Source: Nitrosopumilaceae archaeon (GTDB lineage Archaea > Thermoproteota > Nitrososphaeria > Nitrososphaerales > Nitrosopumilaceae). From it: DNA of 64,000 bases. Both the position numbers and the translations under genes were made by a program. Below the pieces are notes generated by a model that did no database searches, was not told the origin of the DNA, and saw nothing but the letters and a program-made list of their open reading frames with translations. The stretch lies in contig CBDCCK010000002.1 in NCBI GenBank assembly GCA_965214835.1, forward strand, positions 736,001-800,000, read 5' to 3'. Below are positions 8,716-32,076 of this stretch, one piece after another (position 1 is the stretch's first letter; every line of letters starts with the position of its first letter).

Positions 8716-9453
8716 ATGACTTCGTTCAAGATGGCTGCAATCAAGGTTCTGAGAAAGTCAAAGGAGCCGCTTCACTATCAAGAAATCACCAAGATGGCAA
8801 TTGATCAAAACCTCATTGAAACATCTGGCGCGACACCCGAGGCCACAATGAATGCCCAGATTGCAGTGGACATAAAGTACAAGAAGGACAGGTCAGCATT
8901 CATTAAAACCAGGCCCGGAATATTCAAACTAAACCCAAAATACACACACGAAGAACAGATGCAGGAAGAAAAGACGGAAATTTTAGATGCTGGAGAAAGA
9001 GAGGCCGAAACAAAACATTCCCAATTTATTGGAAAAGCTGGGGAGCATCTTGTTGTCAGCAAGCTACTCTTCCAAGAGTTTAATGCAAACATCATGAGTG
9101 TTGATGAGGGGATAGACGTCGTAGCCACAAAGGGTGACCGTGTATACAACATTCAAGTAAAGACTGCAAATGAAAAACATGGAAAATACATCACAGACAT
9201 AAGCATCAGCTCGTATCAGAAACACAATAACTCCAATACATTCTACATATTTGTGCTCAGAGGAAAAGAGGAAAAATTTATGATTCTCCCATTTAATGAA
9301 ATTCAAAAAAACATCGACCAGAAAAACATCCTGGTGGTCAACCGTGGAAAAAGATACAGGGTCAATTTTAGGCTAAAAGGCGGCAAAATCTACATCGGGA
9401 ACCTAGATAACGACGCCACGTATTTTGAAAACAACTGGGAGTCAATTAGGTAG
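8716..9453 (+). CDS. HARE-HTH (HB1/ASXL) plus PD-(D/E)XK restriction endonuclease-like protein
   Basis: AAIKVL...PLHYQEIT...TSGATPEATMNAQI N-terminal domain; GKAGEHLV...GIDVVA...IQVKT nuclease motif. Confidence 0.8.
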   Translation: MTSFKMAAIKVLRKSKEPLHYQEITKMAIDQNLIETSGATPEATMNAQIAVDIKYKKDRSAFIKTRPGIFKLNPKYTHEEQMQEEKTEILDAGEREAETKHSQFIGKAGEHLVVSKLLFQEFNANIMSVDEGIDVVATKGDRVYNIQVKTANEKHGKYITDISISSYQKHNNSNTFYIFVLRGKEEKFMILPFNEIQKNIDQKNILVVNRGKRYRVNFRLKGGKIYIGNLDNDATYFENNWESIR

Positions 9454-14900: not shown

Positions 14901-16616
14901 GACCTTATGCGTAAACGAAATTAGCGGCGATGCCCCCGGCGCACGGGCTACAAATGAGGCAAGTCAGGGCCGGCGCACGCGCGACTGTACCTTACAACGT
15001 TGAAAATATTTGATCAAAACCACAACTATTTTCAGACGATTGATTTAGATCCGGGATCCATTCTCGCATAAGAGTAATGGCAAAGTCCGAGACCGAGCAG
15101 ATACGACTGCTGAAGAAGAGAATCGAGCAGTACGAGAAGGAGAAGGTACAGGACAGGAAGGAGAAGGCGCGGGACAAAAAGAAGATCAAGAAGTATGAGA
15201 AGAGGATCAAGAGGCACGAGAAGAAGAGCAGGCAGGACAGGAAGGAGAAGGCGCGGGACAGGACGGAGAGGATGCAGTACAGGAAGGAGATCAGAGAGTA
15301 CGAGAAGAAGAGCAGGCAGGACGGCAGGAGGCAGGAGCGGGATCAGGAGAGGATAGGGCAGCTGGAACAGCAGCTGGACGCCGAGCGCCGGATGTGGCCC
15401 GCAACCTGGGATGACGACAGGCGCTCCGCGGACAACGCCGCCCTCATGCACAGGCTCGAGGTGCTCGATGACATAATCGGTGGCGGGTCCCTGCAGCCCA
15501 CCACGTCGATGAACCTCCGCCAGTTTGACTACATATATGACCGGTTTACGAAGCTTGCCAAAAAGCACACAGAAGGCCCCCTGTTCTCAGAAGACGAGGA
15601 CAACTTGCCCGGAAACCGGTGCAAGCTGTCCTACCGCCACGCCCTGCTGATGTCGCTGATGCGCAAGTACGGAAACCCGACACAGGAGCAGCTTGCGGCA
15701 TTCTTTGGCATAGACCAGAGCACCGTATGCAGGTACCTCAGGTATTGCGACATGATATTCACCAAGATACTGCCCACGCCGGACGCCGTATCGCGAAAGA
15801 TACGAAACGCCCGCACGATCAAGGAAGTCAAGAAGATCGTCCCGGATCTGACCGTGATTGTAGACGGCACGCACATCGACATACAGCGCCCCACAGACAA
15901 GGAGCCAAGAAAGGAGGCATACTCTGGCAAGAAGAAGAGCTTTACGCGCAACACCCAGGTGATTGCCGACAAGAAGGGACTGGCGATGTATGCAAGCAAG
16001 TCGGCGCCCGGAAGCACGCACGACCTCACCATGATAAAGAACAACCCACCGGATCTGGGAATCCTGACTGCCAGGATGCGCAGCAACAGAAAGCACCCCG
16101 AGGACGAGAAGGTAAAGATGTTCTCTGATCTGGGATACATGGGAATCGAGGAGGTGTATCCCGGGGCCACATCCGTGCAGCCCGACAAGAAGCCAAGGAA
16201 AGGCAAGCTTACAAAGAAACAGAAAGCGCAGAACAGGAGGATAAGCAGCAAGAGGGTGACAGTAGAGCACGCCATAGGACGGATAAAGCAGTACAAGCGG
16301 ATGCGTGATCCGTACGACGGGACCGCCGAGGAGTTCGACAGGGAGTTCCAGGTGACGGCCGGGCTTGCCAACTTTAGGCTGCTGTGGGACAAGCGGAACA
16401 AGAAGCTCATGCATGGGTTCTGATACCACGATACGGAGCGCATTGCGGCGCCACACGATGCCGCACGACATTGTCGTTTTTACCAGCTGTAATGGCTCGT
16501 AGCTACACTATATACGGACTGTGCCGCCCTCATGCACGTCATGTGATGCCGTCAGCCTTGCATGTATGGCCGGTCACCGTCGGAATATTTCGATCCGGTC
16601 GATTACGCATAAGGTC
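14901..16616 (+). mobile_element. Apparently intact IS5-family (ISL2/PIF-like) element
   Basis: TIR GACCTTATGCGTAA / TTACGCATAAGGTC, TA duplication. Confidence 0.9.
15077..16423 (+). CDS. IS5-family DDE_Tnp_4 transposase with a long charged N-terminus
   Basis: HTH (QEQLAAFFGIDQSTVCR), IVDGTH..QRP, YSGKKK, PGSTHD, SDLGY, RVTVEHAIGRIK. Confidence 0.92.
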   Translation: MAKSETEQIRLLKKRIEQYEKEKVQDRKEKARDKKKIKKYEKRIKRHEKKSRQDRKEKARDRTERMQYRKEIREYEKKSRQDGRRQERDQERIGQLEQQLDAERRMWPATWDDDRRSADNAALMHRLEVLDDIIGGGSLQPTTSMNLRQFDYIYDRFTKLAKKHTEGPLFSEDEDNLPGNRCKLSYRHALLMSLMRKYGNPTQEQLAAFFGIDQSTVCRYLRYCDMIFTKILPTPDAVSRKIRNARTIKEVKKIVPDLTVIVDGTHIDIQRPTDKEPRKEAYSGKKKSFTRNTQVIADKKGLAMYASKSAPGSTHDLTMIKNNPPDLGILTARMRSNRKHPEDEKVKMFSDLGYMGIEEVYPGATSVQPDKKPRKGKLTKKQKAQNRRISSKRVTVEHAIGRIKQYKRMRDPYDGTAEEFDREFQVTAGLANFRLLWDKRNKKLMHGF

Positions 16617-16691: not shown

Positions 16692-17231
16692 TCAATTCTT
16701 CTTGCGCGCGTAGATTCTGTCTATTATCACCCCGACTACCACTATTGCCAAACCAACCACCAAGGCACTTGGCAAGTCCAAGATAACGTCAGAATCTGAA
16801 TCCACACCATAATCAGTCTGGACGTTCAATACATGCAACGCTAGCGGCATTAGACCTGTAATGCCGAGCGCCACGAACTTCACACTGCCGCGAAGAATTC
16901 GTTTCAGGAATCTGGCTTCGTCCTTGTTTTGGGTTCCGGGCAGCACCAGCAAACCCTTTGCTATTCTGAAATGCCTGCGCTCTACACCCTTCCTGATAAT
17001 TTTCTTACTGGTGATCTCTAGCAGGCCTATTGATTCCATCTTGTGCAGGTGGTGGACCACCAAGTTGGGGCGAAGTTCAAGATCCCTTGCGATTTCATTG
17101 GCATACATGGTCCGGTCAATCAACGCCTTGATCATTTTGCGACTGGATTCGTTGCCAAGGAGCTCGCCAAGAATCTTCAAGGATTCGTCGGTGGATAAAA
17201 CCTTGATCTCGTCATTTCCTTCTTCGTCCAC
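16692..17231 (-). CDS. ArsR-type winged-helix regulator with two C-terminal TM helices
   Basis: LGNESSRKMIKAL..MYANEIA..L..NLVVHHL.KM...GLL; hydrophobic C-terminus. Confidence 0.8.
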   Translation of the reverse strand: MDEEGNDEIKVLSTDESLKILGELLGNESSRKMIKALIDRTMYANEIARDLELRPNLVVHHLHKMESIGLLEITSKKIIRKGVERRHFRIAKGLLVLPGTQNKDEARFLKRILRGSVKFVALGITGLMPLALHVLNVQTDYGVDSDSDVILDLPSALVVGLAIVVVGVIIDRIYARKKN

Positions 17232-17373
17232 ATCGTTGGGTTGAAACCATGAACCCTAAATACCATTCCACGACCTAATTCAAAGATCGATTGGTCTGGA
17301 GTTGCAGGACTGACCGTCATGACCTGCGAGTTTGAGCAAATTTCAGGCTGTCATGATAACTGATGATGATTTT

Positions 17374-17480
17374 GTGAACTACCAACGACTAAAGCCGTTG
17401 GCTTCCTCGTTCAACGAGCCGGCTTGACCATGGCGATTTGTCATGACCAGAGGCCTTCTCTCCGGAGGCGTGACTTTCCC
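17374..17480 (-). mobile_element. IS200/IS605- or IS607-type right end (TnpB omegaRNA scaffold-like remnant), no tnpB gene
   Basis: Minus strand GGGAAAGTCACGCCT...GGCTCGTTGAACGAGGAAGCCAACGGCTTTAGTCGTTGGTAGTTCAC: terminal hairpin plus TCAC, typical of these ends. Confidence 0.7.
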
Positions 17481-17635
17481 GCGTCCCACAGACAAGGATC
17501 CAAGAAAGGAGGCGTACTCGGGCAAGAAGAAGAGCTTTACGCGCAACGTCCAGGTACTGGCCGACAAGAGGGACCTGACGATGTATGCAAGCGAGTCGGC
17601 TCCCGGAAGCGCGCACGACCTCACCATGATAAGGG
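17481..17635 (+). pseudogene. Internal fragment of the IS5-like transposase
   Basis: RPTDKDPRKEAYSGKKKSFTRN...PGSAHDLTMI, homologous to ~15885-16040. Confidence 0.85.
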
Positions 17636-19044
17636 ACAACTCGCTTTCTACGCTGCCCCTGCGGCAGATAATTCCGGATGATGACGCCAACTGGCTGAAC
17701 CAGACAGACAACGACTTTGATGAATTGGTTCCAGTCATAGATACGGATGGCGGAACTTCGCTGTTTAGGACACTGTTGATGGGATCAACGTCAGGTCGAG
17801 ACGAGTGGGTATGTGACTTTACTAAATCATCACTTCAGAGCAAGATGAAATACTTTGCTAAATTTTACAATGACACAATTAAAAAATATAATGAAGAGAA
17901 ACTAGATGGTGATCTAAAAGACTGGGTGGATAAGAAGATCAAATGGGGTAGGGAAATTATTAAACGATTGAAGCATGGAGATGAAATAGTCTACTCTGAC
18001 ACCAACATCAAAAATCTACTGTATAGACCGTTTGTATTAAAATTTCATTATTTTGATAGGATAATAGTCGATTATCAAAGAAAGTTCCCACAAATTTTTA
18101 AAGATAACAACCCAAACAAAATCATTTGTTTTGTAAACCCGCAAAATAATTCAACATTCCAAACCTTGGCAACTAATCAGATTGCAGAATATCATCTAAC
18201 TGACACGACACAATGTATTCCGCTTCATACATACGATATGGATAATTACAGTTCCAGCAATGTGACAGAATCTGGACTAGAACTATTCCAAAAACATTAC
18301 AAGGACAAAACGATAACTGATGAAGACATATTCTACTACACCTACGCCATCTTCAGCGATCCAAAATACTCTGGCAAATACAAGTTTAACCTGCAGCGCA
18401 AATTTCCGCGAATCCCGCTGGCTGAGAATTTCAGGGAGTGGGTGAGGATAGGTCAGAGGCTGTACATCCTGCATACGGAGTTTGAGGATGCAGAGCCTTA
18501 CGCGTTGCACAGAATAGACAAAAAAACCCGCAAAAATGGCACCAAGCTAAGACTGAAAAAATCCGACGAAAACCAATCTGTGATAATAATAGATGAGCAG
18601 ACCGTCCTTGACGGTGTCCCAAGCCAGGCTTTGGAATACAAGCTCGGTTCAAAGTGTGCACTGGAGTGGATTCTGGAGTTCTACAAGGAATCAAAGAACG
18701 TCATAAAAGAAAAGTCATGCGATGATCCCGCAATACGCGAGAGATTCAACACGTACAGGTTTGCAGACCACAAGGAGCATGTCATAGACCTGCTGCAAAG
18801 GGTTACCACGGTCTCGGTAGAGACAGTGAAGCTGCAGCGAGAACTCGAAAGAATGCCCTGGGGGGAACAGCCAAAACCATACCTTGGAAAATCTGACGTC
18901 AGTGTCGACAAGGCAACGAAAAAACCGCAAATGAGGAAATCCAAACAGCCCAAAAAGCCAAAAGTCGCAAAGAAGAACAGAAGGAAATCCGGGCTCCAGG
19001 ACACGCTTGACGGATCCGGGCAGAAAAGGCTGTTTGGGAACTAG
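17633..19044 (+). pseudogene. Orphan C-terminal (specificity) part of a Type ISP-like methyltransferase, cassette A
   Basis: DNSLSTL..WLNQTDNDF..LYRPF..FPRIP..CALEWILEFYKE..GQKRLF; open frame; paralogue of 27371-30565. Confidence 0.85.
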
Positions 19045-19126
19045 GCCACGGCAGAGTCACATACAGCCCAGCTCCCTAAGTTAACGCCAGAAACCCCTAA
19101 CTTAACACCCCGCTGAAAAGCCCCGA

Positions 19127-19164
19127 AGATTTACCAGAGTACTAAACTGTACTCTGGTAAATCT
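19127..19164. repeat. Perfect 16-bp inverted repeat with a 6-bp spacer (left border site)
   Basis: AGATTTACCAGAGTAC-TAAACT-GTACTCTGGTAAATCT. Confidence 0.95.
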
Positions 19165-19287
19165 CCGAGAGTTTTCAGAGACCTGTTAAATTAGGGTGCT
19201 GGGGTGTTAAATTAGAGTGTTAGAGACGTCGGCAAGAACAAACGATTGATGGCACGCTACAAGCGTTGGCTTCGGGAATGTTGAAGG

Positions 19288-21159
19288 TCAGAACAGCCTT
19301 TTCTGGCCGGTTCCGTCAAGCGTGTCTTGGAGCTTGGATTTCTTTGATTTCTTGGGTTTTTTAGGCTGTTGTCTGGTTTTTTTTGTTTGCAATTTTCTCA
19401 TCGTCTTGTCATTGCCGGCATCAGACTTCTTAAGGTGCAGTTCCGGCTGCTTCCCCCAAGGCATGTTTTCAAGATCCCGCCGCAGATTCATCGTCTCGAC
19501 TGAGATACTGGTGACCTTTTGTAGTAGGCCTATGACATGTTCCTTGTAATCTGCAAACCTGTACGTGTTGAACTTTTCCCGGATTTTGGGATCATCGCAG
19601 GATTTGTCGGATATGACGTTCTTTGATTCCTTGTAGAATTCTAAGATCCATTCCAGTGCGCATTTTGAGCTGAATTTGTATTCCAATGCTTGATCAGGTA
19701 CATCCTCAAGTATGGTCTGCTCATCAATCACTATTTTCAATGACTCGCTTTCTGATTTTTTTAAACTCAATTTGGTGCTGTTCTTGTTTGTTTTCCTGTC
19801 TGTGCGTTTTAACGGAAATGGCTCTGCCTCTTCAAAATGGACATGAAGGTCATAGAGTTTTTTGCCTAGCCGTACCCATTTCGAAAAATTTTCTGCGAGA
19901 GGTATTCTTGGGAACTTGCGCTGGAGATTGAACTTGTATTTTTCTTGGTATTTCGGATCATTGAAAATGGCATAAGTATAGTAGAATACGTCCTCGTCTG
20001 TTATCGTTTTGCTCCCGTAGTGTTTTTGAAATAACTCCAAACCAAAGTCAGTAATGTTGCTGTGACGCTTGCCCTCGTCATCGTATGTGTAAAGCGGGAT
20101 GCACTGAGTGCCAACAACACAATCAAGATCCATGATTTTATCAGTTGCCAATGTCTGAAATAACACATTAGTTTTTGGATTGGCAAAACCAATTAGCCTG
20201 TTTGATCTAGAATTTTTGAAGATGTTAGGAAATTTTCTCTGCCTATGTGTTATTATTTTATCAAAATAATTCTTCTTCAATACAAATGGCCTATACATTA
20301 CGTCTTTGATGTTGGATTTTGAATATGCGATTTTATTTCCACGTTTTATATGCTTAAAGAAATCCTCGGTCCACTTGATTTTTTTATCTGCCCAGTCTTT
20401 TAGACTAACCGCTAGGTTTTCTTCATCATATTTAGAAAGTGTTTTGCTGTAAAAATCAACAAAATATTTTATCTTGTTTTCAAGCGATGTTTGGTCAAAA
20501 TCATACACCCATTCGTTCCTGTTTGATGCCAGTCCCATAGACAGTACTCCAAATATGGAATTTTCTTTATCAGACACGATCGGAACCAGTTTTTTAAAAT
20601 CATTGTCAGTCTGGTTCAGCCAGACCGCATCCTCGTCGGGCACTATCTCCCTTAGCTGCAGGGTAGAAAGCGAGTTGTCCGCAAGCCATTTTAGCTTAGC
20701 TTCACTTTTCATATAGTCTGCAATTTCTGTGTATCTAATCTCAGATTTTTCTTCACCCGTTTTGATAAAAAAGGATATGGTTACACCAACCTTGATGGTG
20801 TCTCGAAACACGTTGCCTTTCTGTTTGCGGCGTTCCTCGCCTGATGTACGAGCATTTCCCTTCAGGTTGACAGTATAGATGTAATCAAACTCTTCAAACA
20901 CCGACCTCCTGAACCCATCGTCTGACTTTGCGTCAAGAAAGGAGTTGTTGCTCACAAATATGACCATGCCGTTGTTCTTGATGCGCTCGCTTGCCCACTT
21001 GAGAAAGCGCTTGTACATGTCATACTGCTTATCCTTGTTCCCTACAGTGGAATTTTTGACGTACGTTTCTTCTATTTTCTTATCAAGGTCAGGATATTTG
21101 TCAGCAGGATTTGCGTCGTTAAAGCTTACCTGGACCGCGTTGTACGGCGGGTTTCCCAA
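19288..21159 (-). pseudogene. 5'-truncated alternative C-terminal half of the Type ISP-like methyltransferase (from GNPPY to stop), cassette B
   Basis: Open frame; homology to the full gene begins abruptly at TTGGGAAACCCGCCGTAC; lacks the SAM-binding motif I. Confidence 0.9.
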
Positions 21160-22330
21160 AACTCGCCTTAGTATGTGTGAGCATATCCAGAACACAGTTA
21201 ATCTGTTGCGGTGTTGCCCGCTCTAAGATCTCCTGTATTTGCTGTTTCGGTTCTGATCTAGAAATTACACCCACCTGATCCAAGTATTCCTCGGATCTTG
21301 CAAAGGCATCACTCATTTCATTTAGCAAAACTTCTGGAAGGATCCCCTTGTTTGTGGTGTATCTTGATTCGATGGTGCCTTTATGCCCCATGAAGAAGAC
21401 TCGGAAATCATGCGCAATCTTTCCTTTAGACTCTGCTATTAGCAGCTGTGTGTCAAAATATGCACGTAGCACATACGGCCTCCACCCAAATTTGGGTCGG
21501 AGCGTATTGCGTATTTTGTCGCTTATTCGTTGTGTTGGAAGGAACGCCTTTTGCGATCTTCTCCAAGCATGTACTTCACTATGATCGTTGGGGGATATTA
21601 CGGGTGAGTTCTCGTCCAGATTCTCCCCAGACGCAAGTCTGTCGTTTAGATACGTCACTAGCTGTTCTGTTGCTTGACATGTGGAGAATGTAAAGTACTG
21701 GTGTCCTGCCTTTGACAATTCACGTCTTACGATGATTCGGTTTGGCGTCCGGATGCATTTTACTGTTCCATGTAAAATCGAAATATCTGGAAGATCCCTC
21801 ATCTGTAACCCATCTGTCCCTCTGTGGTTACCAATTACGCCCGGTCTCATACCTGATTTTGCCATAAGTGATATCAGCACGGATTCTCGCAATCCTGCAT
21901 TGCTGTATATGTCTGTCATTTCATGTGCATCAGGCACCCGTTCATTCTGCAGTGTGGGAGAAAACCCAGCAGATGCAATTCTTATTCGTCGCTTTACCAC
22001 CACATCAAAATGCCTGAACCAGGATTTTACGGTGTTTATATGATCCTCTATGTATCCAGGAGAATAGTTGTTGGACTCCATCATGGTTATGTGATCCTCC
22101 AGCAGGTCTGTTGCAGTCCTCAGATCGTTGACTGCAAGATCTGCAAGCTGGGAGGGAGTCATCTTGTGCATCTCACAGAACCTTCCCAGCTTCCGCAGGC
22201 GTCCCTCGGCGGTAAGAGGACTTCCACGCATCAGATTGTCATACCACCGTTGGACATCCTGATTAGATAGTAATTTTGATTTCTTGGTGTGGTTGGCAAC
22301 GTCTTTTGCACACGCTTTACGGGTTTTCAT
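21119..22330 (-). CDS. Tyrosine recombinase/integrase (archaeal type)
   Basis: SGMRPG (R), ELSK (K), PYVLR (H/YxxR), FMGH (H), RYT (Y). Confidence 0.9.
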   Translation of the reverse strand: MKTRKACAKDVANHTKKSKLLSNQDVQRWYDNLMRGSPLTAEGRLRKLGRFCEMHKMTPSQLADLAVNDLRTATDLLEDHITMMESNNYSPGYIEDHINTVKSWFRHFDVVVKRRIRIASAGFSPTLQNERVPDAHEMTDIYSNAGLRESVLISLMAKSGMRPGVIGNHRGTDGLQMRDLPDISILHGTVKCIRTPNRIIVRRELSKAGHQYFTFSTCQATEQLVTYLNDRLASGENLDENSPVISPNDHSEVHAWRRSQKAFLPTQRISDKIRNTLRPKFGWRPYVLRAYFDTQLLIAESKGKIAHDFRVFFMGHKGTIESRYTTNKGILPEVLLNEMSDAFARSEEYLDQVGVISRSEPKQQIQEILERATPQQINCVLDMLTHTKASFGKPAVQRGPGKL

Positions 22331-22400
22331 ACGGATTGGTTTTAGATGCCTAATCTTATCCTTATGCGTGACAGGGCATCCACTGTTAAAAAATAAGGCA

Positions 22401-23744
22401 TCAGGAAAGCAGTTTCATCCAGCAGCTGTTTTTTCCATTTGACAGCCAGCTGAATCCGTGCAGACGTAGTATATCATTGATTTCCCGCCAGATGTGCTTG
22501 TCAATCCATGCCCTGGGAGATATTTTGATAGAATCCCCCTCGTTCACAATTGAAACTTTGCTAATTCTCTTTCCCAAATTGCTTGTAAAACTCGGTGTCG
22601 TCATCGACTGTTTTATCAGGTCCAAATACTTGTCGTTTCCAAGTCCAAGCTCGATCCCTGATGCCTGAGCCGGAGTCCTGCCGTCAAGCCCCTGATGCGG
22701 TTTTACAAAATTGTGGTTTATTTTCAGCAACTCTGCAAAGTCCTGTGCTGACTCGTCATTGCCAAGGCCGCGTCTTGCCTTTAGGTTCTCTCTGATCTCG
22801 TTGTGATACCTCTCTATGGGCCTGTTTGCAAACCCGTCCCTGATGGATTTTGTTTTGACATGTGCTGTCATTTCTTTGAATTCTTTTCGCATTGCCTCCT
22901 GATACGAGTTTAAGGCATCTGTAATGACATAGTTAGGATACTTGGGTATCAGCTTCTTACCGCTTGCTATGATTCTTCTTGCATCTGCAATCTCGCGTCT
23001 CTTGGAGACTTCGGTAGCAATCAGAAATCGGGTCTTGGGATCAATGATGCTCCACAACCAGTCATAGAATCCCTTTCCAGTCTTCTCTGTGTTTTTTACG
23101 TTCAGCGTCATCTCATCCAAAGACCATACATCACCAAGCGTTGGACAAAATGACTCCACGTATTCTTTGATCAGTTGGGTGTATTTTTTTATCCAATTTC
23201 TAACGGAGACGTAACTGATCTTAATTCCGTGGACGGAATTGATGTGTCTTGAAATGTTTCTGTACGAGACGCCTGACATGACTAGGTTGATTGATTCGGA
23301 TATTATCTTTGGATCAGACGACATCTTTGAAAACCCGCTTTCTCCAAGGTTGAACCTATAGCCGCATTGCTTGCATTTGTATAGTTGTCTCTTTGTATCA
23401 TCCTTGAGAATTCTGAACCCAGACTTGATTATTGTAGTCGAATAACATTTGGGACAGATTCTTGGCTGTTCCGTCTTTTCAATCCTATTTTGGGTCTTGA
23501 TGTTGTCCTTTAGCATTATGCAACATATGATATGCTTGCAATGCTTGTCGTCTTGTGTTCTGAGCCGGTTATGAAAATCCGGACACTCGCATGTCCATAT
23601 GTCTATGTCATGCAGTTTTTTTACGCTATATTCCTTGTCGGAGTTTTGTGATTTTACTACATAGTGGTTCTTTGTTATCTTTCTGACCGAGTTGACCTTT
23701 GAGAGGATCTGGACTGCTTTTTCATCCCTACTTGTATACTTCAT
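22401..23744 (-). CDS. IS6-like DDE transposase/integrase with an N-terminal SWIM finger and Zn ribbon
   Basis: WTCECPDF..CKHI (SWIM), CPKC..CKQC, WSLDEM, IIDPKTRF, ITDAL, NRPIERYH, NFVKPHQGLDGRTPA. Confidence 0.85.
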   Translation of the reverse strand: MKYTSRDEKAVQILSKVNSVRKITKNHYVVKSQNSDKEYSVKKLHDIDIWTCECPDFHNRLRTQDDKHCKHIICCIMLKDNIKTQNRIEKTEQPRICPKCYSTTIIKSGFRILKDDTKRQLYKCKQCGYRFNLGESGFSKMSSDPKIISESINLVMSGVSYRNISRHINSVHGIKISYVSVRNWIKKYTQLIKEYVESFCPTLGDVWSLDEMTLNVKNTEKTGKGFYDWLWSIIDPKTRFLIATEVSKRREIADARRIIASGKKLIPKYPNYVITDALNSYQEAMRKEFKEMTAHVKTKSIRDGFANRPIERYHNEIRENLKARRGLGNDESAQDFAELLKINHNFVKPHQGLDGRTPAQASGIELGLGNDKYLDLIKQSMTTPSFTSNLGKRISKVSIVNEGDSIKISPRAWIDKHIWREINDILRLHGFSWLSNGKNSCWMKLLS

Positions 23745-23829
23745 ATTGTATAGATAACGGTATATCTATAAAACATTATCTGCCTAAAGCCAGATATCCT
23801 TTATATATGTGGATTCACATATTCGAATA

Positions 23830-23988
23830 TTGGCAAGGAAAAAAACAAGTCTCACTTTGGATGAGAAAATCTGGAATAACTTTCAGGCATACGCATTAAA
23901 AAAACACGGAAACACTCGTAACGCCAACACAGAACTGGAGCTTGCCATGTATGAATACATTAAGAATCACCCTGTGGAGAAAAAATAG
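23830..23988 (+). CDS. Small ribbon-helix-helix-like regulator
   Basis: Own translation (TTG start): MARKKTSLTLDEKIWNNFQAYALKKHGNTRNANTELELAMYEYIKNH.., 52 aa, divergent from the transposase and upstream of the RM genes. Confidence 0.65.
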   Translation: MARKKTSLTLDEKIWNNFQAYALKKHGNTRNANTELELAMYEYIKNHPVEKK

Positions 23989-24074
23989 AATGAATGTTAA
24001 CCGCAAATCGTCAAGGATGCCTGTATTGGGCGGTAAAAATCTAAAAATTCAAAAACAAGCCAAACGCGTGATTC

Positions 24075-27000
24075 ATGGGTAACGGTGAACTAATCATGGG
24101 TAGTGAGGATACGGTAATTGACAATGAGAGTGTCGTACTTTTAGATCAACTAAGAGAGATACTGCCAGATACGAACAGGGCAAGCATTGCGGTGGGCTAT
24201 TTCTTCATCTCTGGATTCAGCGCAATAATGGGTAGCTTAAACAAGATAGAGTCAAGCAGCGACCCAAACCACGTTATACGGCTGTTGATCTCACCGACTA
24301 CAAACCGGGCCACGGCAGAGGCGTTACTTGCAAGCAACGAGTCTTATGAAACAGCAAGAATGAGGGGCAAACAAACCGGTTCTGAGGAAAGAGGAAAAAA
24401 GACCGCAAAAGAAGAGGTCAAAAAAACGCTTGAGTACATGTCGCAAACAAACGAGGATCAAAAGGCTACAGCGAAACTTGCCGAACTGATCAAAAAGAAA
24501 AAAGTGCAGGTGAAGGTATATACAAAGGATCAACTTCATGCAAAGGCGTATATTTTCGAGCTTGACAACAGACAGCTTTCAAAGATGGCAATAGTAGGTT
24601 CCAGCAACCTCTCAATGTCGGGGATAAAGGAGCATACTGAGCTTAATCTGAGAACAAATCACTCAGGCGACTCTGGCAAACTGCTAGAATGGTTTGATCG
24701 ACATTGGAACGATCCCAGCTGCCAGGAATTCACGCGGGAGATAGCTGACATCATAGATGAATCCTGGATTGCCAAACACTCGCCAAATGACGTGTACGAC
24801 AAGGCGGTTCTTCATGAGCATGAAGAACTTTTTGAAGAGCCCGACGGAGTAGATGAAAAAACACGAGAGTTGTTTGACTTTCAAAAGACGGCAGTAAGCA
24901 ACGCCATAAAAAAACTCGACAGGTATGGGGGTGTCATGATTGCCGATGTGGTGGGTACAGGCAAATCCTACATTGGTAGTGCCATTCTAAAGCATCTCAA
25001 GGAGAACAACCGCTCAAAACCACTGATAATATGCCCACCCCACCTCAAGGAGATGTGGCAGGAATACATGAAAGATTTTGACATTTACTGCCAGATAGAA
25101 TCAAGATACAAGATAGGCATGGAGGATAACATACTCTCACGCTACACAAACTGCGACGCGGTGTTGATAGACGAGAGTCACAACTTTCGCAATTCAAGCA
25201 CAAACGCATACAGGGCACTGCTTGCATTCATGGAGGAAAAGACAGAAGAGGCCAAGATAATCATGCTGTCTGCCACCCCGATATCAAACCGCATCACGGA
25301 TCTAAAGAACCAGCTAAGGCTTTTCCCAAGAGAGATGCTCTTGCAGATACCTCCCCTGAACAACACAACACTTGATGAATACTTTAAGGGATTAGACGGC
25401 CCAAAAGACGAGCTCAGAGAGGAGGCCGACACCAAGATACGGGAACTTCTCAAGTATATTCTAATCCGACGTACCCGCAAGCAGATCATGAAAAAGTATG
25501 CCAAAAAAGACGGCAAACGGTACTATCTTGAAAAGGACGGGCAACGAAAGTACTTTCCAAGAAGAGAGTTACAGAATCCAAAGGAGTACAATGTTGACAA
25601 GGTGTACAACAACTCCTTTGACATGATCCAAAGCGCGATTGAGGATCTTACCCTTGCGAGGTTTGCCCCGGGAAACTACATCAAGAAAGAATATCTGAAC
25701 GACTCTAACCCGGACCACAAAAAATATGTCGATTTGAACAGTACGACAAAGCCACTGGTTGGCATAGTTCGGACATCGCTACTCAAGAGGATGGAAAGTA
25801 GCATCATGGCGTTTGCATCCAGCGTAAAGCACTATCAGGAAGGGTACAAGGAGTTCAGAAAGCAGCTTGACAAGGGCAAGGTTCCCATCGGAAAGGACTT
25901 TCATGATGAGATATACAAGAAGATCGCATACGAGGGGGAAGACTATGACGACGAGGAGTACGAGCAGAAAATGGCAAAGATCTCATCTCAGTACGACATA
26001 GAGGCGTTTGACGTGGAACGTTGGAAGAGGGACATAGCAGAGGACATTAACCGTTTTTCAAGCATCAAGGGGAATCTGGTGTCAAAGTCCGAGTATACCA
26101 AATATGATGACAAGCTCCACACGCTGGTAAAACTGGTCAACGGAATGGACAGGGAAAAGATTCTGATCTTTTCTGAATCTGCCGTAACCGCAAAATACGT
26201 CTACGAATACATGAAAAAGGAACTAAATCCGCCTCGTCGTATTGCGCAGATTGACTCTAAACAGGGAAACAGGGAGAAAAATGTCTTGATCAGGAAGTTT
26301 GATCCGAAGAACAACAACGCTACTGCTGATGTTCCAAAAAGCGAGGAGATTGACGTGTTGATAAGCACGGACGTACTGTCTGAGGGAGTGAACTTGCAAG
26401 CTGGCAAGACGGTAATCAACTATGACTTTCACTGGAATCCCGTCAGGCTCATACAGAGAGTAGGAAGGATAGACAGGATAGGCACGCAACACGAAACTGT
26501 CGACGTGATCAATTTCCTTCCTACGGCAAAGATTGACGCGACTCTCTCGCTCAAAGAAAGGGTTGCAAACAAGATTGAGACCATCCGCAGGATAATAGGA
26601 CATGATCAGCAGATACTAGAGTCAACAGAAGTATTGGACGAAAAGGGCGTGCTTGACATTTATGCTGGTAACGAGGACGTACTGGATTCTGATGTTGCAA
26701 GCATCATTGATATGGGCGAATCAAAGTCAGAACAAGACGCAGACAATATAAAAAGAGATGAGACAAGAAGACAACATATCGAGCAGATGCCCTTTGGCAT
26801 AAGAAGCGTTTCAGGCACGGGTAAGCTTCTGATAGCGTGCGAGGCACGGGAGATTGTAATGGATCAGCGTGGCCGCCACATGTCTGAACGTCCGTTTAGA
26901 AGACACTACGAAATAACGAAGGACAGCATTACTCAGATCTGGCAGTCATCCTTCCTGAACGAGTTGGGGAAAAACCAAGGAAACCTATCCGGCACGGAGG

Positions 27001-27374
27001 ATTCCACATATAACGAGCTTGTGGCTGAAGCGTGGAAAAAGTTCGATAAGGACATGAAAAATTCCAGTGCAAAAAAGACCATGCTAAAGCACCAGCAATA
27101 CTTTGATAAAAAATTAAGACAGATGTCCGAAAGTCAGGACTTGGGCCGTCGCGCAATGTCCATGCTGCCGTTCGTAGGACAGAGAATGCTTACAAATCTC
27201 CAGCCGTACAAGAGGCTAACCGAGCTTCGCAAGGAGATTGACAGGAATCCCGACACTGATGACAAGATGATAATCGAGGGGTTGGAAACGATCAGGGATA
27301 AATACGGACAGACGGAATATGAAAAGACGATAAGCAAGCCTCGTATACTGTATAGCATGATGGTGGCCAAATGA
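24075..27374 (+). CDS. PLD-family nuclease plus SF2 (SNF2-like) helicase, putative restriction subunit
   Basis: AVGYFF, LHAKAYIF..IVGSSNLS..ELN (PLD); ADVVGTGKS, DESH, SATP, TDVLSEGVNLQ, WNPVRLIQRVGRIDR. Confidence 0.9.
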   Translation: MGNGELIMGSEDTVIDNESVVLLDQLREILPDTNRASIAVGYFFISGFSAIMGSLNKIESSSDPNHVIRLLISPTTNRATAEALLASNESYETARMRGKQTGSEERGKKTAKEEVKKTLEYMSQTNEDQKATAKLAELIKKKKVQVKVYTKDQLHAKAYIFELDNRQLSKMAIVGSSNLSMSGIKEHTELNLRTNHSGDSGKLLEWFDRHWNDPSCQEFTREIADIIDESWIAKHSPNDVYDKAVLHEHEELFEEPDGVDEKTRELFDFQKTAVSNAIKKLDRYGGVMIADVVGTGKSYIGSAILKHLKENNRSKPLIICPPHLKEMWQEYMKDFDIYCQIESRYKIGMEDNILSRYTNCDAVLIDESHNFRNSSTNAYRALLAFMEEKTEEAKIIMLSATPISNRITDLKNQLRLFPREMLLQIPPLNNTTLDEYFKGLDGPKDELREEADTKIRELLKYILIRRTRKQIMKKYAKKDGKRYYLEKDGQRKYFPRRELQNPKEYNVDKVYNNSFDMIQSAIEDLTLARFAPGNYIKKEYLNDSNPDHKKYVDLNSTTKPLVGIVRTSLLKRMESSIMAFASSVKHYQEGYKEFRKQLDKGKVPIGKDFHDEIYKKIAYEGEDYDDEEYEQKMAKISSQYDIEAFDVERWKRDIAEDINRFSSIKGNLVSKSEYTKYDDKLHTLVKLVNGMDREKILIFSESAVTAKYVYEYMKKELNPPRRIAQIDSKQGNREKNVLIRKFDPKNNNATADVPKSEEIDVLISTDVLSEGVNLQAGKTVINYDFHWNPVRLIQRVGRIDRIGTQHETVDVINFLPTAKIDATLSLKERVANKIETIRRIIGHDQQILESTEVLDEKGVLDIYAGNEDVLDSDVASIIDMGESKSEQDADNIKRDETRRQHIEQMPFGIRSVSGTGKLLIACEAREIVMDQRGRHMSERPFRRHYEITKDSITQIWQSSFLNELGKNQGNLSGTEDSTYNELVAEAWKKFDKDMKNSSAKKTMLKHQQYFDKKLRQMSESQDLGRRAMSMLPFVGQRMLTNLQPYKRLTELRKEIDRNPDTDDKMIIEGLETIRDKYGQTEYEKTISKPRILYSMMVAK

Positions 27375-30300
27375 GTTTTGAGGATCGCCTGGAATCCCTT
27401 CAAAGGACGCTGAAATTAAGCGGATATGAGAATATACGCCATTTCGTTGACATAAGCGCGCTAGTAAGGGACGAATCAGTAAGCGACTGTGAGATAATAG
27501 CGCGCAAGGATTTCTACAACATCTTATATCTGGAGGCAAAGTCAAACTGGCGCGGCATTGCCACCGACGTGGCCAAAAAGCAGTCAAAGCCATGCCTTGT
27601 CATCACTGGCTACGGGGAATCACACCTGATCCTATCCACCATCAAGGATTACTTTACAAATCCAAGACCGCGCCATGTCATCATCGACACAAGATCCAAG
27701 ACACATTCTTTTGACGGATTTGCAAAGCTGATCAAGGTAAGGCCGGAGGACGATTTTGTATCTATAGATGAGCAAGTACACCATGCGTTTGATGAATTTG
27801 CGGCGTACGAGGAGGCGCTTGACGAATTCGGCGAGAACCTCAAAAACGCAATAAAAAACACACGGGAAATCATAGTAAAGGCATCAAAAAACAACAAGAG
27901 ATACGACGCAGAGTCTGAACAGTTTCTGGAGATGTGTCACAAGGTGATAAGCAACAAGCTCAAATCAGACGACATTACAGAGATGATTCTTCAGCATGTC
28001 CTGACATACAAGATCTTCTCCCTGATATACGACGAGCACGAACTCCACAGCACCAATGCAATAGCACGGTCACTTGAGGGCATAATAGATACGCTTGGAG
28101 TCGATATGGAGCAGATTAGTACCGGCTACCAGACGACAAAACTGGTAGCCGAATCGCTTACAGATTTTGCCGAAAAGCAGGACTTTCTCAAACGCGTGTA
28201 TGAGACGTTTTATGCAGAGTATGACCCAAAAAACAAGGACAGTTGGGGAATAGCATACACCCCATCAGAGGTTGTGGATTTCATGGTAAGGTCGACCGAC
28301 CAGCTGCTTGAAAAACACTTTGGAAAATCAATGTCCGATGATTGTGTTACCCTACTTGATCCGGCCACCGGTACGGGAACATTCATTACACAGATCCTGA
28401 GGCACCTGAAGCACAACTCTGTCAAAACCAAATACGAAAATGACATATTTGCAAACGACATATCGTTACTGGCATACTACATTGCTGCGCTGAACATAGA
28501 GAATACATACCAAGAGATAACAGGGCAAGTCAAAGAGTTTGAGAACATATGCTGGATGGATACCCTTGCTACTGGCACAAAGGACTTTGGGAAGGTAAGC
28601 ACGTATTTTGATGAGCAGGACAATGTAAAGAGGATCTCAAAGCAGCAAGTAAAGGACATATGTGTGGTCTTGGGAAACCCGCCGTACAACGCGGTCCAGG
28701 TAAGCTTTAACGACGCAAATCCTGCTGACAAATATCCTGACCTTGATAAGAAAATAGAAGAAACGTACGTCAAAAATTCCACTGTAGGGAACAAGGATAA
28801 GCAGTATGACATGTACAAGCGCTTTCTCAAGTGGGCAAGCGAGCGCATCAAGAACAACGGCATGGTCATATTTGTGAGCAACAACTCCTTTCTTGACGCA
28901 AAGTCAGACGATGGGTTCAGGAGGTCGGTGTTTGAAGAGTTTGATTACATCTATACTGTCAACCTGAAGGGAAATGCAAGACTGTCTGGTGATGCATGGA
29001 GACGCGAGGGGGATAAAATATTTGGCCAGAGTGCGCGTGTTGGCATATCCATATCTTTTTTTATAAAAACGGGAGAAAATCATTCAGAGATACGATACGT
29101 GGAAATAGACGATTATTTGAAGAGGGAAGATAAGCTAAAATGGCTTGCGGACAACTCGCTTTCTACCCTGCAGCTAAGGGAGATAGTGCCCGACGAGGAT
29201 GCGGTCTGGCTGAACCAGACTGACAATGATTTTAAAAAACTGGTTCCGATCGTGTCTGATAAAGAAAAATCTGTCTTTGAATTGCTTTCAATGGGTTTAA
29301 CATCTAATAGAGACGAATGGGTGTATGATCTAGGCCGGAAATCACTTGAAAACAAAATGAGGTATTTCGTTGATTTTTACAACAAATCAGTCGCACAATA
29401 TCAGAATGAACATCCTAAGGATACAGAATTCAAAGACTGGGCAGATAAAAAAATCAAGTGGACCGAGGATTTCTTTAAGCATATAAAACGTGGAAATAAA
29501 ATCGCATATTCAAAATCCAACATCAAAGACGTAATGTATAGGCCATTTGTATTGAAGAAGAATTATTTTGATAAAATAATAACACATAGGCAGAGAAAAT
29601 TTCCTAACATCTTCAAAAATTCAAGCCGTAATAGACTGATTAATTTTACAAATCCTACACCAAAAAGCCGATTTCATGCGCTTGTGTCAGACAAGATCGT
29701 TGATCTTCATTATGTTATTGACACTCAATGCATTCCGCTTTACACATATGATGATGGGGGCAAGCGTCACAGCAACGTCACTGACTTTGGTTTGGAGTTA
29801 TTTCAAAAACACTATAGGAACAAAGCGATAGCAGACGAGGACATATTCTACTACACCTATGCCATTTTCAATGATCCGAAATACCAAGAAAAATACAAGT
29901 ACGATCTGCAGCGCAAATTCCCAAGAATTCCGCTGGCTGAGAATTTTGGTGATTGGGTGAAAATAGGCAGGAAACTGTATGATCTCCATGTCAACTTTGA
30001 ATGTGTCAAAAAGTATCCATTGAAGCGAACAGACAAAAAGACTGCAAAAAATCAAACCCGACTCCTGCTGAAAAAACCGAAAGAGGAAGACAACTCTCAG
30101 GATTTTACCATAATGATTGATGATAATACGATGCTTGAAGGAGTGCCAAAAGAAACGTTGCAATACAAATTCAGCTCAAAATGCGCACTGGAGTGGATCT
30201 TAGAATTCTACAAGGAATCAAAGAACGTCATATCCGACAAATCCTGCGATGATCCCAAAATCCGGGAAAAGTTCAACACGTACAGGTTTGCAGATTACAA

Positions 30301-30565
30301 GGAACATGTCATAGGCCTACTACAAAAGGTCACCAGTATCTCAGTCGAGACGATGAAGCTGCGGCGGGATCTTGAAAACATGCCTTGGGGGAAGCAGCCG
30401 GAACTGCACCTTAAGAAGTCTGATGCCGGCAATGACAAGACGATGAGAAAATTGCAAACAAAAAAAACCAGACAACAGCCTAAAAAACCTAAAAAACCCA
30501 AGAAATCAAAGAAATCCAAGCTCCAAGACACGCTTGACGGAACCGGCCAGAAAAGGCTGTTCTGA
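27371..30565 (+). CDS. N6-adenine DNA methyltransferase with a Type ISP-like C-terminal specificity domain
   Basis: GIAYTP..VVDFMVRS, LDPATGTGTF, GNPPY, NLKGN, RDEWVY, YRPF, FPRIP, ALEWI; ATGA overlap with the helicase stop. Confidence 0.92.
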   Translation: MSFEDRLESLQRTLKLSGYENIRHFVDISALVRDESVSDCEIIARKDFYNILYLEAKSNWRGIATDVAKKQSKPCLVITGYGESHLILSTIKDYFTNPRPRHVIIDTRSKTHSFDGFAKLIKVRPEDDFVSIDEQVHHAFDEFAAYEEALDEFGENLKNAIKNTREIIVKASKNNKRYDAESEQFLEMCHKVISNKLKSDDITEMILQHVLTYKIFSLIYDEHELHSTNAIARSLEGIIDTLGVDMEQISTGYQTTKLVAESLTDFAEKQDFLKRVYETFYAEYDPKNKDSWGIAYTPSEVVDFMVRSTDQLLEKHFGKSMSDDCVTLLDPATGTGTFITQILRHLKHNSVKTKYENDIFANDISLLAYYIAALNIENTYQEITGQVKEFENICWMDTLATGTKDFGKVSTYFDEQDNVKRISKQQVKDICVVLGNPPYNAVQVSFNDANPADKYPDLDKKIEETYVKNSTVGNKDKQYDMYKRFLKWASERIKNNGMVIFVSNNSFLDAKSDDGFRRSVFEEFDYIYTVNLKGNARLSGDAWRREGDKIFGQSARVGISISFFIKTGENHSEIRYVEIDDYLKREDKLKWLADNSLSTLQLREIVPDEDAVWLNQTDNDFKKLVPIVSDKEKSVFELLSMGLTSNRDEWVYDLGRKSLENKMRYFVDFYNKSVAQYQNEHPKDTEFKDWADKKIKWTEDFFKHIKRGNKIAYSKSNIKDVMYRPFVLKKNYFDKIITHRQRKFPNIFKNSSRNRLINFTNPTPKSRFHALVSDKIVDLHYVIDTQCIPLYTYDDGGKRHSNVTDFGLELFQKHYRNKAIADEDIFYYTYAIFNDPKYQEKYKYDLQRKFPRIPLAENFGDWVKIGRKLYDLHVNFECVKKYPLKRTDKKTAKNQTRLLLKKPKEEDNSQDFTIMIDDNTMLEGVPKETLQYKFSSKCALEWILEFYKESKNVISDKSCDDPKIREKFNTYRFADYKEHVIGLLQKVTSISVETMKLRRDLENMPWGKQPELHLKKSDAGNDKTMRKLQTKKTRQQPKKPKKPKKSKKSKLQDTLDGTGQKRLF

Positions 30566-30688
30566 CCTTCAACATTCCCGAAGCCAACGCTTGTAGCGTG
30601 CCATCAATCGTTTGTTCTTGCCGACGTCTCTAACACTCTAATTTAACACCCCAGCACCCTAATTTAACAGGTCTCTGAAAACTCTCGG

Positions 30689-30724
30689 AGATTTACCAGA
30701 GTACTAAACTGTACACTGGTAAGT
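30689..30724. repeat. Right border site (arm-TAAACT-imperfect arm)
   Basis: AGATTTACCAGAGTAC-TAAACT-GTACACTGGTAAGT. Confidence 0.9.
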
Positions 30725-30765
30725 TAACGGGAGCTGATTTCTCCTGGAAGGCGTCGGGAGCCGGA
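30711..30765 (-). mobile_element. End remnant of the IS6-like element
   Basis: CTGGTAAGTTAACGGGAGCTGATTTCTC matches 10382-10410 and the reverse complement of 31700-31733. Confidence 0.75.
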
Positions 30766-30918
30766 ACCGGTGGCTATCCCTCATGCTAACGGCCGGGTGA
30801 TGTCGGAGGAGGTGACCTAGTACAAAAGAAGGCTTCTTGGTTTTGTCTGGATTTGGCTCAGCGTCTCATTTGGCATCTTGGGTTGGCCGGTTGATGCTAG
30901 TCACGCACAGAATATACG

Positions 30919-31200
30919 CTAGTCTAGAATGACTGGTCTCCAGTCAGACAGATTACGGGAGTTATAATTGCACTCATCCTGATCGTTGTACATCCATTCG
31001 TTATTGTCTAATATCACAACGCCGCCAAAGAGGCTCTTGGAGTTCTTTATGTATCGCGTAAGCGCTTCGGCCTTGTATTTGGCCTCTTTTGCAGTAAATC
31101 CTTCCTTGGTATCGAACAGCCCTACCTTGCCATTCTCCATGCGGATTATAAAATCAAGCCGGAGCAAATCCGGATGAGTATTTCCTGACGAAGGTATCAA
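30919..31200 (-). pseudogene. C-terminal fragment of a Type III-like restriction (Res) endonuclease
   Basis: DFIIRMENGKVGLFDTKEGFTA...KAEAL..Y...GGVV; PD-(D/E)xK-like; truncated. Confidence 0.55.
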
Positions 31201-31228
31201 AAACTCACTGTATTTCTTCCGCGCTAGC

Positions 31229-31737
31229 TGGATTCCGAGACACGGTTCTGGCTGGCCCAGACGGTCTCAGAACACAAGGGAAACGACGACGTGTCCCCGA
31301 TGTTCAGGGATGCCAAGAGGAAGGCAAGCAAAATCCCAAAGATGCTGATATCGGACAGGGCTGCAAACTTTCACCATGCATGGAGGGAGCAGTACCGATC
31401 CAAGAACTTCCTCCACAAGGACACCGAACATCACAGGAACATCCATCTCTCCGGCGACATGAACAACAACCAGATGGAGTCATTCAACGGCAACACACAG
31501 GGCCTGCGAGAAGGTGATCCGTGGGATTAAGAGGGACGATTCTGCCATACTCAGGGGGATGCAGATCCACCACAACTACATCAGGCCCCATCAGGGTCTT
31601 GACGGCGACATGCCGGCAGACAGGGCCGGAATCAGAATAATGGGAGAAAACAAGTGGAAGACCATAATCCAGAACGCCCATACCAGCTCCCGACGCTTTC
31701 CGGGAGAAATCAGCTCCCGTTAGCTTACCAGTCCCCA
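31229..31737 (+). pseudogene. Frameshifted IS6-like transposase 3' half with its element end
   Basis: DSETRFWLA, LISDRAANF, NNNQMESFNG, HNYIRPHQGLDG; ends TTACCAGTCCCCA. Confidence 0.8.
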
Positions 31738-32076
31738 TGAGCAATATGCCTGAAATAGAAAGCGAATATTCTCCGACGTACAAACGCATACCTGTGGCGG
31801 GGATTTTTGGAGGCATACGGCCATTTGGCGTCGAAGTCGTCCTGTATTCTGAAAGCATGGACATAAAAAACATTGGAAACCCATCCTCCGTCAAACAGTA
31901 GAACATCAATCAAGCGTACCGCCAAATGCGAACTCCTCATCGATCCAATGCAGATGAGGAGTATACACAAGTGGCTGGAAAATAAAATCAAAGAGTATGA
32001 GGAAACGTTCAGTACAATCCCCTCACCAGAAGAAGTAGAAGGTAGAGCAAAAAGAAGCAAGGATCCCCGCCGATAG
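31737..32076 (+). pseudogene. Frameshifted hypothetical protein
   Basis: MSNMPEIESEYSPTYKRIPVAGIFGG.. continues in another frame (..CELLIDPMQMRSIHKWLENKIKEYE) across an A6 run. Confidence 0.5.

Follow-up and report, generated by a model that had tools for sequence, protein, structure and literature searches.

The 64,000-nt stretch analyzed here (the window; positions 736,001 to 800,000 of contig CBDCCK010000002.1 from a Nitrosopumilaceae archaeon) carries a restriction–modification (R-M) locus in which the final 631 codons of the M gene are present twice, in inverted orientation. The second, partial copy was named cassette B. It lies at 19288–21162 on the minus strand and corresponds to codons 433–1064 of the M gene. 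Its reading frame is uninterrupted over 624 codons. The genes of the locus are as follows.

21119–22330, minus strand: tyrosine recombinase (by modeled fold), 403 amino acids; its last 41 nt overlap block C1(B) of the cassette
22401–23744, minus strand: IS6/IS1-like DDE transposase gene, located between the recombinase and R genes and present once in the genome
24075–27374, plus strand: R gene, encoding a fusion of a PLD (HKD) nuclease with an SNF2-type helicase (Pfam, PADLOC)
27371–30565, plus strand: M gene (full gene, F), with an N-terminal domain, an ISP coupler, a gamma-class N6-adenine methyltransferase (MTase) and a Type ISP target recognition domain (TRD) at the C-terminus (Pfam, PDB)

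The region 28401–30900 was aligned with the reverse complement of 19001–21400 using MAFFT. The full gene (F) and cassette B (B) share four blocks (C1 to C4), and three variable segments (V1 to V3) lie between them. The loops and the helix named below are recognition elements of related enzymes.

19149–19682, minus strand: C4(B), near-identical tail; last ~130 codons, stop codon and 139 nt of 3' flank
19683–20209, minus strand: V3(B), variable; Loop VI equivalent MDLDCVVGT
20210–20400, minus strand: C3(B), 191 nt identical; helix H and Loop V equivalents
20401–20560, minus strand: V2(B), variable; Loop IV equivalent MGLASNRN
20561–20698, minus strand: C2(B), 138 nt identical
20699–20851, minus strand: V1(B), variable; MTase-domain Loop III equivalent KGNARTSGEERRKQKGNVFRDTIKVG
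20852–21159, minus strand: C1(B), 308 nt identical; from codon 434 (LGNPPY, motif IV), with Loop I and Loop II equivalents
28670–28977, plus strand: C1(F)
28978–29130, plus strand: V1(F); Loop III equivalent KGNARLSGDAWRREGDKIFGQSARVG
29131–29268, plus strand: C2(F)
29269–29431, plus strand: V2(F); Loop IV equivalent MGLTSNRD
29432–29622, plus strand: C3(F)
29623–30161, plus strand: V3(F); Loop VI equivalent VDLHYVIDT
30162–30704, plus strand: C4(F), including the 3' flank up to a 15-mer at 30690–30704

C1, C2 and C3 were identical in the two copies over their whole lengths of 308, 138 and 191 nt. The tail (C4), 534 nt long in B and 543 nt in F, matched as runs of 31, 164, 120 and 217 nt interrupted by 2 substitutions and one 9-nt indel. 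This near-identity extended 139 nt beyond the M stop codon at 30565. In the V segments, 30-nt windows of the alignment scored 11 to 28 identical positions out of 30. The four blocks were all in frame, with indels in multiples of 3 nt, and an independent repeat search recovered the same inverted pairs. Judging from the alignment, identical runs of 138–308 nt beside segments of 40–90% identity cannot have arisen by chance. The original prediction, made from the letters of the window, had described blocks of 308, 138, 191 and ~540 nt, three divergent segments between them and a peptide pair for each segment. The pairwise alignment reproduced all block lengths and coordinates, the 30-nt windows reproduced the divergent segments, and every quoted V1, V2 and V3 peptide was found in the protein alignment.

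The R stop codon overlaps the M start codon, and the pair is translationally coupled. In Pfam, M matched the coupler PF22240 (2.1e-10), PF02384 (6.2e-13) and Type_ISP_C PF18135 (2.5e-76), and R matched PLDc_2 (2.2e-12), RE_NgoFVII (8.5e-7), SNF2-rel_dom, Helicase_C and ResIII. R also matched 'HKD+Snf2' in PADLOC (2.1e-72). The best solved relative of M was DrdV (PDB 7LO5, expectation value (E) 5.3e-190, residues 145–998), followed by LlaGI (5FFJ, 2.7e-130) and LlaBIII (4XQK, 6.9e-112). The locus had been framed as Type ISP, of the LlaBIII/LlaGI kind, and this framing held in part. The coupler, the gamma-class N6-adenine MTase and the Type_ISP_C TRD agreed with it, but the closest solved relative is the Type IIL enzyme DrdV. 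A Type ISP enzyme carries its nuclease, ATPase, MTase and TRD on one polypeptide with an Mrr-like (PD-ExK) nuclease; here, two genes (24075–27374 and 27371–30565) encode the functions, and the R nuclease is of the PLD/HKD kind. By domain content, the system is two-gene and Type ISP-like, not Type ISP proper. Among loci of this archaeal family whose flanks were usable, at least 10 others show the same R-M split, and relatives of the locus were found in metagenome-assembled genomes (MAGs) of Nitrosopumilaceae. A metagenome scan gave 16 loci at 38–53% identity, two of them with the R-M pair, on contigs too short to display a cassette.

No Pfam family was found for M residues 1–144 (27371–27802), and residues 1–150 gave no Pfam match above noise. 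This N-terminal domain lies outside the DrdV match, which starts at residue 145. Five homologues conserve the domain, and a YLE-x-x-SNW motif is among the conserved parts. A weak Atlas lead pointed to BpuSI_N, the N-terminal nuclease domain of BpuSI (score 0.91, 121 shared features). A possible E-x-K motif was seen in the domain; its Lys is not conserved. Upstream of R, a 52-amino-acid open reading frame (ORF) at 23830–23988 has the look of a ribbon-helix-helix protein by eye. It had no Pfam match and no counterpart in 5 related loci. Elsewhere in the window, the HARE-HTH protein encoded at 8716–9453 weakly matched the nuclease family Mrr_cat_2; its gene may be another one of the restriction type.

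The protein encoded next to cassette B had no match in Pfam, NCBIfam, PADLOC or PHROGs. More than 2000 homologues were found, some of them named 'site-specific integrase' by NCBI. A profile of 106 sequences matched archaeal XerA in the PDB (4A8E, E 4.1e-9; 5HXY, E 8.2e-6). The AlphaFold (AF2) model reached a predicted local distance difference test (pLDDT) value of 91.7, and Foldseek matched it to XerA, IntI4, Cre, XerH and lambda Int, each with a probability of 1.00. Among the 106 sequences, R162, K207 and Y324 were invariant and R289 and H316 were at least 90% conserved; the catalytic roles were assigned by eye. On the basis of the modeled fold and these residues, the ORF at 21119–22330 is taken to be a tyrosine recombinase. 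A shallow profile of 18 sequences had given TAL-effector repeats alone in the PDB and a model pLDDT of 55.9, and it was superseded by the 106-sequence alignment. Residues ~48–83 repeatedly gave weak TAL-effector repeat matches (E ~1e-5 summed), probably a chance helix-loop-helix likeness. The genome holds 8–9 near-full-length paralogues (40–65% identical) plus fragments; the listed positions are 481528, 527471, 544121, 658751, 1271100, 1373436, 2006855 and 3204967 of genome C2 (not to be confused with block C2). A direct-repeat cluster with recombinase fragments was seen at 478–485 kb of genome C2.

Published base contacts were mapped onto M via HMMER alignments to its PDB relatives, and the identity of every mapped residue was verified against the one that the respective paper gives. 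Loop definitions for LlaGI came from PMC4872093 and DrdV contacts from the DrdV preprint (bioRxiv 10.1101/2021.01.06.425610). In the portions of these two sources used here, loops of both the MTase and the TRD read bases in this enzyme family, as the original prediction had stated. The recognition elements of M are distributed over the cassette range as follows.

Residues 435–445: Loop I, in C1
Residues 471–480: Loop II, in C1
Residues 533–556: Loop III, in V1
Residues 641–648: Loop IV, in V2
Residues 699–707: helix H, in C3
Residues 737–744: Loop V, in C3
Residues 777–785: Loop VI, in V3

Each variable segment carries exactly one recognition loop. The expectation that V1 to V3 would cover base-contacting loops was therefore borne out, and the variable residues did not map away from DNA. 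Recognition elements were not enriched in the V segments, which hold 3 of the 7 elements and make up 45% of the cassette length. Twelve DrdV base-contact positions fall in the cassette range, six of them in V segments, and four differ between the two alleles.

Position 543 (DrdV R554): W in F, R in B
Position 553 (DrdV D564): Q in F, D in B
Position 780 (DrdV D803): H in F, D in B
Position 784 (DrdV K807): D in F, G in B

The equivalents of DrdV N548 (R537 here) and N673 (N646 here) are the same in both alleles. The equivalent of LlaGI K1131 is K549 in F and Asn in B. The divergence of V1 is focused on the loop, with 29% identity over residues 537–560 vs 74% over residues 561–587. Of the 9 positions of Loop VI, 5 differ between the alleles, compared with only 2 of the 8 in Loop IV.

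In LlaGI, Loop III of the MTase reads position −1, Loop VI of the TRD reads +3, and Loop IV reads +4, according to the portion of PMC4872093 used here. In the consensus code given there, Lys at 1131 correlates with C:G at −1, His at 1368 reads G at +3, and Asn at 1228 correlates with A:T at +4. The DrdV target, as given in the part of the preprint used, has G at the −1 place, a region contacted via R554, and C at +3. The F allele has Lys at the 1131 position and His at the 1368 position, suggesting C:G at −1 and G at +3. For the B allele, Asn at the 1131 position together with Arg at the 1125 position predicts G:C at −1; its Asp at the D803 position is as in DrdV, whose +3 base is C. Both alleles keep Asn at the 1228 position, which would read A:T at +4. 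Switching between the alleles is thus predicted to alter motif positions −1 and +3, with +5 and +6 fixed.

The two copies were further compared for divergence. The blocks had synonymous divergence (dS) values of 0–0.03. V1, V2 and V3 had dS values of 1.97, 2.33 and 1.24, and their ratios of nonsynonymous to synonymous divergence (dN/dS) were 0.21, 0.12 and 0.18. On these values, the variable alleles are old and have been held under protein-level selection, and the blocks are being homogenised.

The same layout recurs in a second genus. At L006, a locus in a complete Nitrosopumilus MAG, the order is M, R, recombinase and inverted cassette. Identities to the locus in the window are 64–65% for M, 57% for R and 78% for the recombinase; the DDE transposase gene is absent from L006. 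The L006 cassette starts from codon 433, 5 nt past the recombinase stop codon. It shares with its own M gene an identical 307-nt C1 (codons 433–535), a 127-nt C2 (codons 586–628) and a near-identical C3 (codons 652–738), and variable stretches lie at the places of V1, V2 and V3. Within each of the two genomes, C1 is 99–100% and C3 is 92–100% identical, whereas between the genomes, amino-acid identity is 79–80% for C1 and 51–53% for C3. The identity of the blocks within genomes is therefore due to exchange and not to protein constraint; the blocks evolve in concert. The sharp borders had been read earlier as marks of recombination or conversion, and this reading was supported both by the block dS of 0–0.03 vs 1.2–2.3 in the V segments and by block identity within, not between, genomes. 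In Loop III (residues 537–560), cassette B of the window was 83% identical to the full gene of L006 and 29% identical to its own full gene. The full gene of the window and the L006 cassette share a W...K-(I/V)-F-G form of Loop III. In Loop VI, cassette B pairs by motif with the L006 cassette (DCVVG and DCIPG). Loop III classes are thus swapped by position and Loop VI classes are not, a hint of reassortment from two loci.

Taken together, we consider cassette B to be probably the silent partner of a specificity shufflon. A full specificity gene is accompanied by a partial, inverted and silent copy on the opposite strand (codons 433–1064). Four in-frame blocks form inverted repeats that bound three variable segments. 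The gene for a site-specific recombinase, of the tyrosine recombinase fold, adjoins the repeats and overlaps C1(B) by 41 nt. If a block in the gene recombined with its inverted twin, the intervening DNA would flip. The smallest predicted invertible segment is the following.

21160–28669, no strand assigned: recombinase, transposase gene, R and M codons 1–433; bounded by the two C1 copies

Inversion between the C1 copies would flip this segment and join the 5' part of M to the downstream segments of B. In either state, the two outward-reading ends, M and the recombinase, would run into identical block sequence. If C2, C3 or C4 were the site of inversion, progressively more of the V segments would be carried along, and at most three nested inversions would reach all eight combinations of V1, V2 and V3. 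The adjacent tyrosine recombinase is the likely catalyst. The smallest segment lies within one 7570-nt run contig (21130–28699). From this anatomy, we infer ongoing inversion, the recombinase as its driver and a change of specificity as its outcome.

The claim that crossovers could yield up to 8 alleles stood for haplotypes (2^3 = 8, with the blocks in frame and at most three nested inversions). It did not carry over to specificities. Because the contact Asn in V2 is kept and Loop IV is changed at only 2 of 8 positions, the eight haplotypes probably mean about four specificities. More tentatively, the locus may be the first programmed-inversion specificity switch described in Archaea, with a XerA-like integrase of the thaumarchaeal mobile-element lineage co-opted as an invertase that flips the whole R-M operon between two 3' ends. 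The target would then be rewritten one position at a time, at −1 and +3 and perhaps at +4, in line with the published Type ISP recognition code.

Several observations weigh against a shufflon. Contigs of four runs (X1, X3, X4 and X5) over 17000–31800 break at the repeats and are unable to phase the segments; no strand-changing joint is listed for them. Recombination inside blocks longer than 31 nt yields no new words in such contigs, and no inversion variant was observed. Among the 78 loci with relatives of the recombinase, only L006 has the same layout, and a cassette was found in only 2 of 11 R-M loci with usable flanks. When 12 tblastn match regions for the recombinase in the genome were examined (8–9 near full length), large inverted repeats were found at this one alone, and the family consists mostly of mobile-element integrases. 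No 12-mer common to the four blocks was found beyond chance (best summed mismatch 9 vs a random minimum of 8), and the blocks yielded no recombinase core site. The contact Asn of V2 (N646) is identical in both alleles. The transposase gene between the recombinase and R might have disturbed expression. The selection seen on B could also reflect a purifying phase that predates its silencing.

Some candidate signals were set aside. A joint in X5 (17733 to 29354) had a depth of 4.3 with 24 letters on its shorter side, fell under the reliability hint and was not used. The C4 contig was B-type in X3, had two other letters in X4 and was F-type in X5, each time at ~2x single-copy depth; this was attributed to bubble popping and not to recombinants. 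The longest run identical to L006, 43 nt at 28651–28693 across the 5' edge of C1(F), was rejected as a DNA site, since a 35-nt run is also shared outside the blocks. Other inverted repeats near family integrases were transposase copies at L037, and those at L025 gave no family.

Two further features of the neighborhood bear on the history of the locus.

17443–19044, plus strand: cassette A, a chimeric ORF in which a third TRD copy, from ~codon 589, comes after a fragment of a DDE_Tnp_4 transposase
19128–19163, no strand assigned: palindrome (15-6-15), where the 3' flanks of cassettes A and B meet tail to tail

Cassette A is direct relative to the M gene and inverted relative to B. It has 59% amino-acid identity to the full gene (tblastn, residues 589–1064) and no identical blocks. 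Its Pfam matches were Type_ISP_C (1.2e-74) and DDE_Tnp_4 (4.1e-8), and its repeats D2–D7 were 74–85% identical. The start of the cassette A ORF is a fragment of the transposase gene at 15077–16423 (15886–16045 vs 17481–17640, 89% identical). This gene encodes a DDE_Tnp_4 transposase whose N-terminal part comes from Lys/Glu/Arg-rich repeats with a 21-nt period (15114–15365). The TRD copies end in a 3' flank of ~74 nt (19068–19142), which closes with a fixed 15-mer, and the similarity always ends directly after it. The flank was found at four more sites of the genome (C2 near 854552, 2242355, 2465307 and 65239), and two of these copies adjoin degraded C-terminal fragments of the same gene (C2 854654–855596 and 2241974–2242327). 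A 1018-bp element resembling a miniature inverted-repeat transposable element lies at 30715–31732. Its terminal inverted repeats of 50 nt are 92% complementary, it contains no clear gene, and many partial copies occur genome-wide. The window also contains TFIIE-alpha and GTP cyclohydrolase III genes.

The strongest rival explanation, which we regard as unlikely but not negligible, is an integrated mobile element comprising B, the recombinase, the transposase gene, R and M. Cassette A would be an older resident copy, and the element would have inserted into its 3' flank. The recombinase would serve integration and excision, not inversion, B would be a leftover, and the blocks would arise via sporadic recombination or conversion. 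The first 25 nt of the palindrome (19128–19152) form a perfect direct repeat with 30690–30714, and the two copies bracket an 11.5-kb unit with exactly these contents. The flank of cassette A terminates with the left copy, and the MITE-like element abuts the right one. The depth of run X1 was ~86–88 in the A region, left of the repeat, vs 0–8 over 19470–28855, which suggests presence/absence polymorphism of the 11.5-kb unit. The other near-full-length recombinase copies in the genome have no large inverted repeats alongside, and 77 of the 78 related loci lack the layout. A family integrase was found in 3 of the 11 R-M loci with flanks. At one of them, L113 of another genome (G359:C1:106000–125999), the integrase (6344–7390, 55% identical) lies divergently upstream of R with no inverted cassette; the association of integrase, R and M, as read from this locus, recurs apart from a shufflon. 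Thaumarchaeal integrated elements often carry R-M genes, insert in 3'-distal parts of genes and form tandem arrays, according to the portion of PMC6563490 used here. However, L006 shows the same adjacency of recombinase and cassette and the same block plan, but has neither a flanking direct repeat of at least 18 nt nor a copy of the 15-mer. Sporadic conversion would hardly place four separate exact blocks at matching codons in two genera. The 25-nt repeat belongs to the 3' flank that every TRD copy and remnant of the genome has in common, and it can thus also be explained by common descent. The two explanations are also compatible, as a mobile island can carry a shufflon.

A second rival, which appears still less probable, treats cassette B as a one-way donor. 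Its segments would be copied into the expressed gene by non-reciprocal, pilin-type gene conversion, with no inversion. Identical blocks would serve equally well as anchors for conversion, and the lack of a core site in them fits this view. Nevertheless, the inverted orientation and the abutting tyrosine recombinase are an inversion signature, and both are kept in L006. One-way copying would also erase the F-type segments, yet both loci retain two diverged sets. An origin of the identical blocks in errors of assembly or polishing is hardly credible, because contigs of X3, X4 and X5 (one study, possibly of the source strain) match the unique pieces and their borders at 19653–19961, 20671–20995 and 21130–28699 with 0 other letters, and the independent genome with L006 has the same pattern.

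Specificity shufflons are well documented in bacteria, where they offer clonal hedging against phages and can reset methylation-dependent expression. If cassette B is the silent partner of such a shufflon, the locus and its Nitrosopumilus counterpart would be a concrete archaeal case among relatives of ammonia oxidisers. With one mapped loop per swappable module, the locus would be a natural experiment on the amino-acid-to-base code of Type ISP and Type IIL enzymes, useful for specificity engineering. A large archaeal recombinase family lacks a Pfam model, and the locus would also suggest a possible function for one of its branches.

In the hsdS shufflons of Type I systems, inverted repeats between TRD modules and a tyrosine recombinase reportedly give several methylation specificities per clone, likewise proposed here. 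Those modules are said to be the two TRDs of a separate S subunit, whereas here one module is an MTase-domain loop within a single MTase–TRD chain. The hsdS inversions of Streptococcus pneumoniae are an example (portions of PMC4948785 and PMC7672463). Type ISP enzymes share with M the coupler, the gamma-class MTase and the Type_ISP_C TRD, and their six recognition loops and helix H can be aligned. They consist of one polypeptide whose nuclease is Mrr-like and whose ATPase is RecA-like. In the locus studied here, motor and nuclease reside on a protein of their own, which combines a PLD nuclease with an SNF2 motor. DrdV (Type IIL, PDB 7LO5), the best solved relative, has a Loop III close to that of cassette B. 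As described in the part of its preprint used, DrdV carries an N-terminal nuclease of its own and does not depend on a helicase, whereas here a helicase–nuclease gene is coupled to M.

The cryptic integrated elements of thaumarchaea (Krupovic et al. 2019, PMC6563490) are similar in that they have a tyrosine integrase and R-M cargo, are flanked by a direct repeat and insert at a gene's 3' end. They differ in having no inverted, block-structured cassette in the portion of the paper used, and the word 'inversion' has 0 occurrences in its main text. A long-read survey covered 42 archaeal data sets and gave 12 putative archaeal invertons, none named in an R-M gene in the portion of the survey used (PMC10028968). 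Full-text literature searches gave no report of an archaeal or Type ISP inversion switch. The closest parallels are the bacterial programmed inversions that rewrite PglX genes of BREX (bacteriophage exclusion) systems and Eco57I-type (Type IIG) R-M genes (Milman et al. 2023, PMC9881135), in a survey that covered bacteria only, per its discussion. In the portion of that paper used here, these systems likewise combine a full gene with a partial inverted copy, nested intragenic inverted repeats and an adjacent recombinase, and the swap of an internal part needs two nested inversions. Unlike those cases, the locus described here has an archaeal host and a two-gene, helicase-dependent, ISP-like enzyme, and its flipped segment would take in all of R, the 5' portion of M and a recombinase of a family with no Pfam model. 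The class of mechanism is known; new in detail are the domain of life, the type of enzyme, the family of the recombinase and the exchange of a loop that belongs to the MTase domain.

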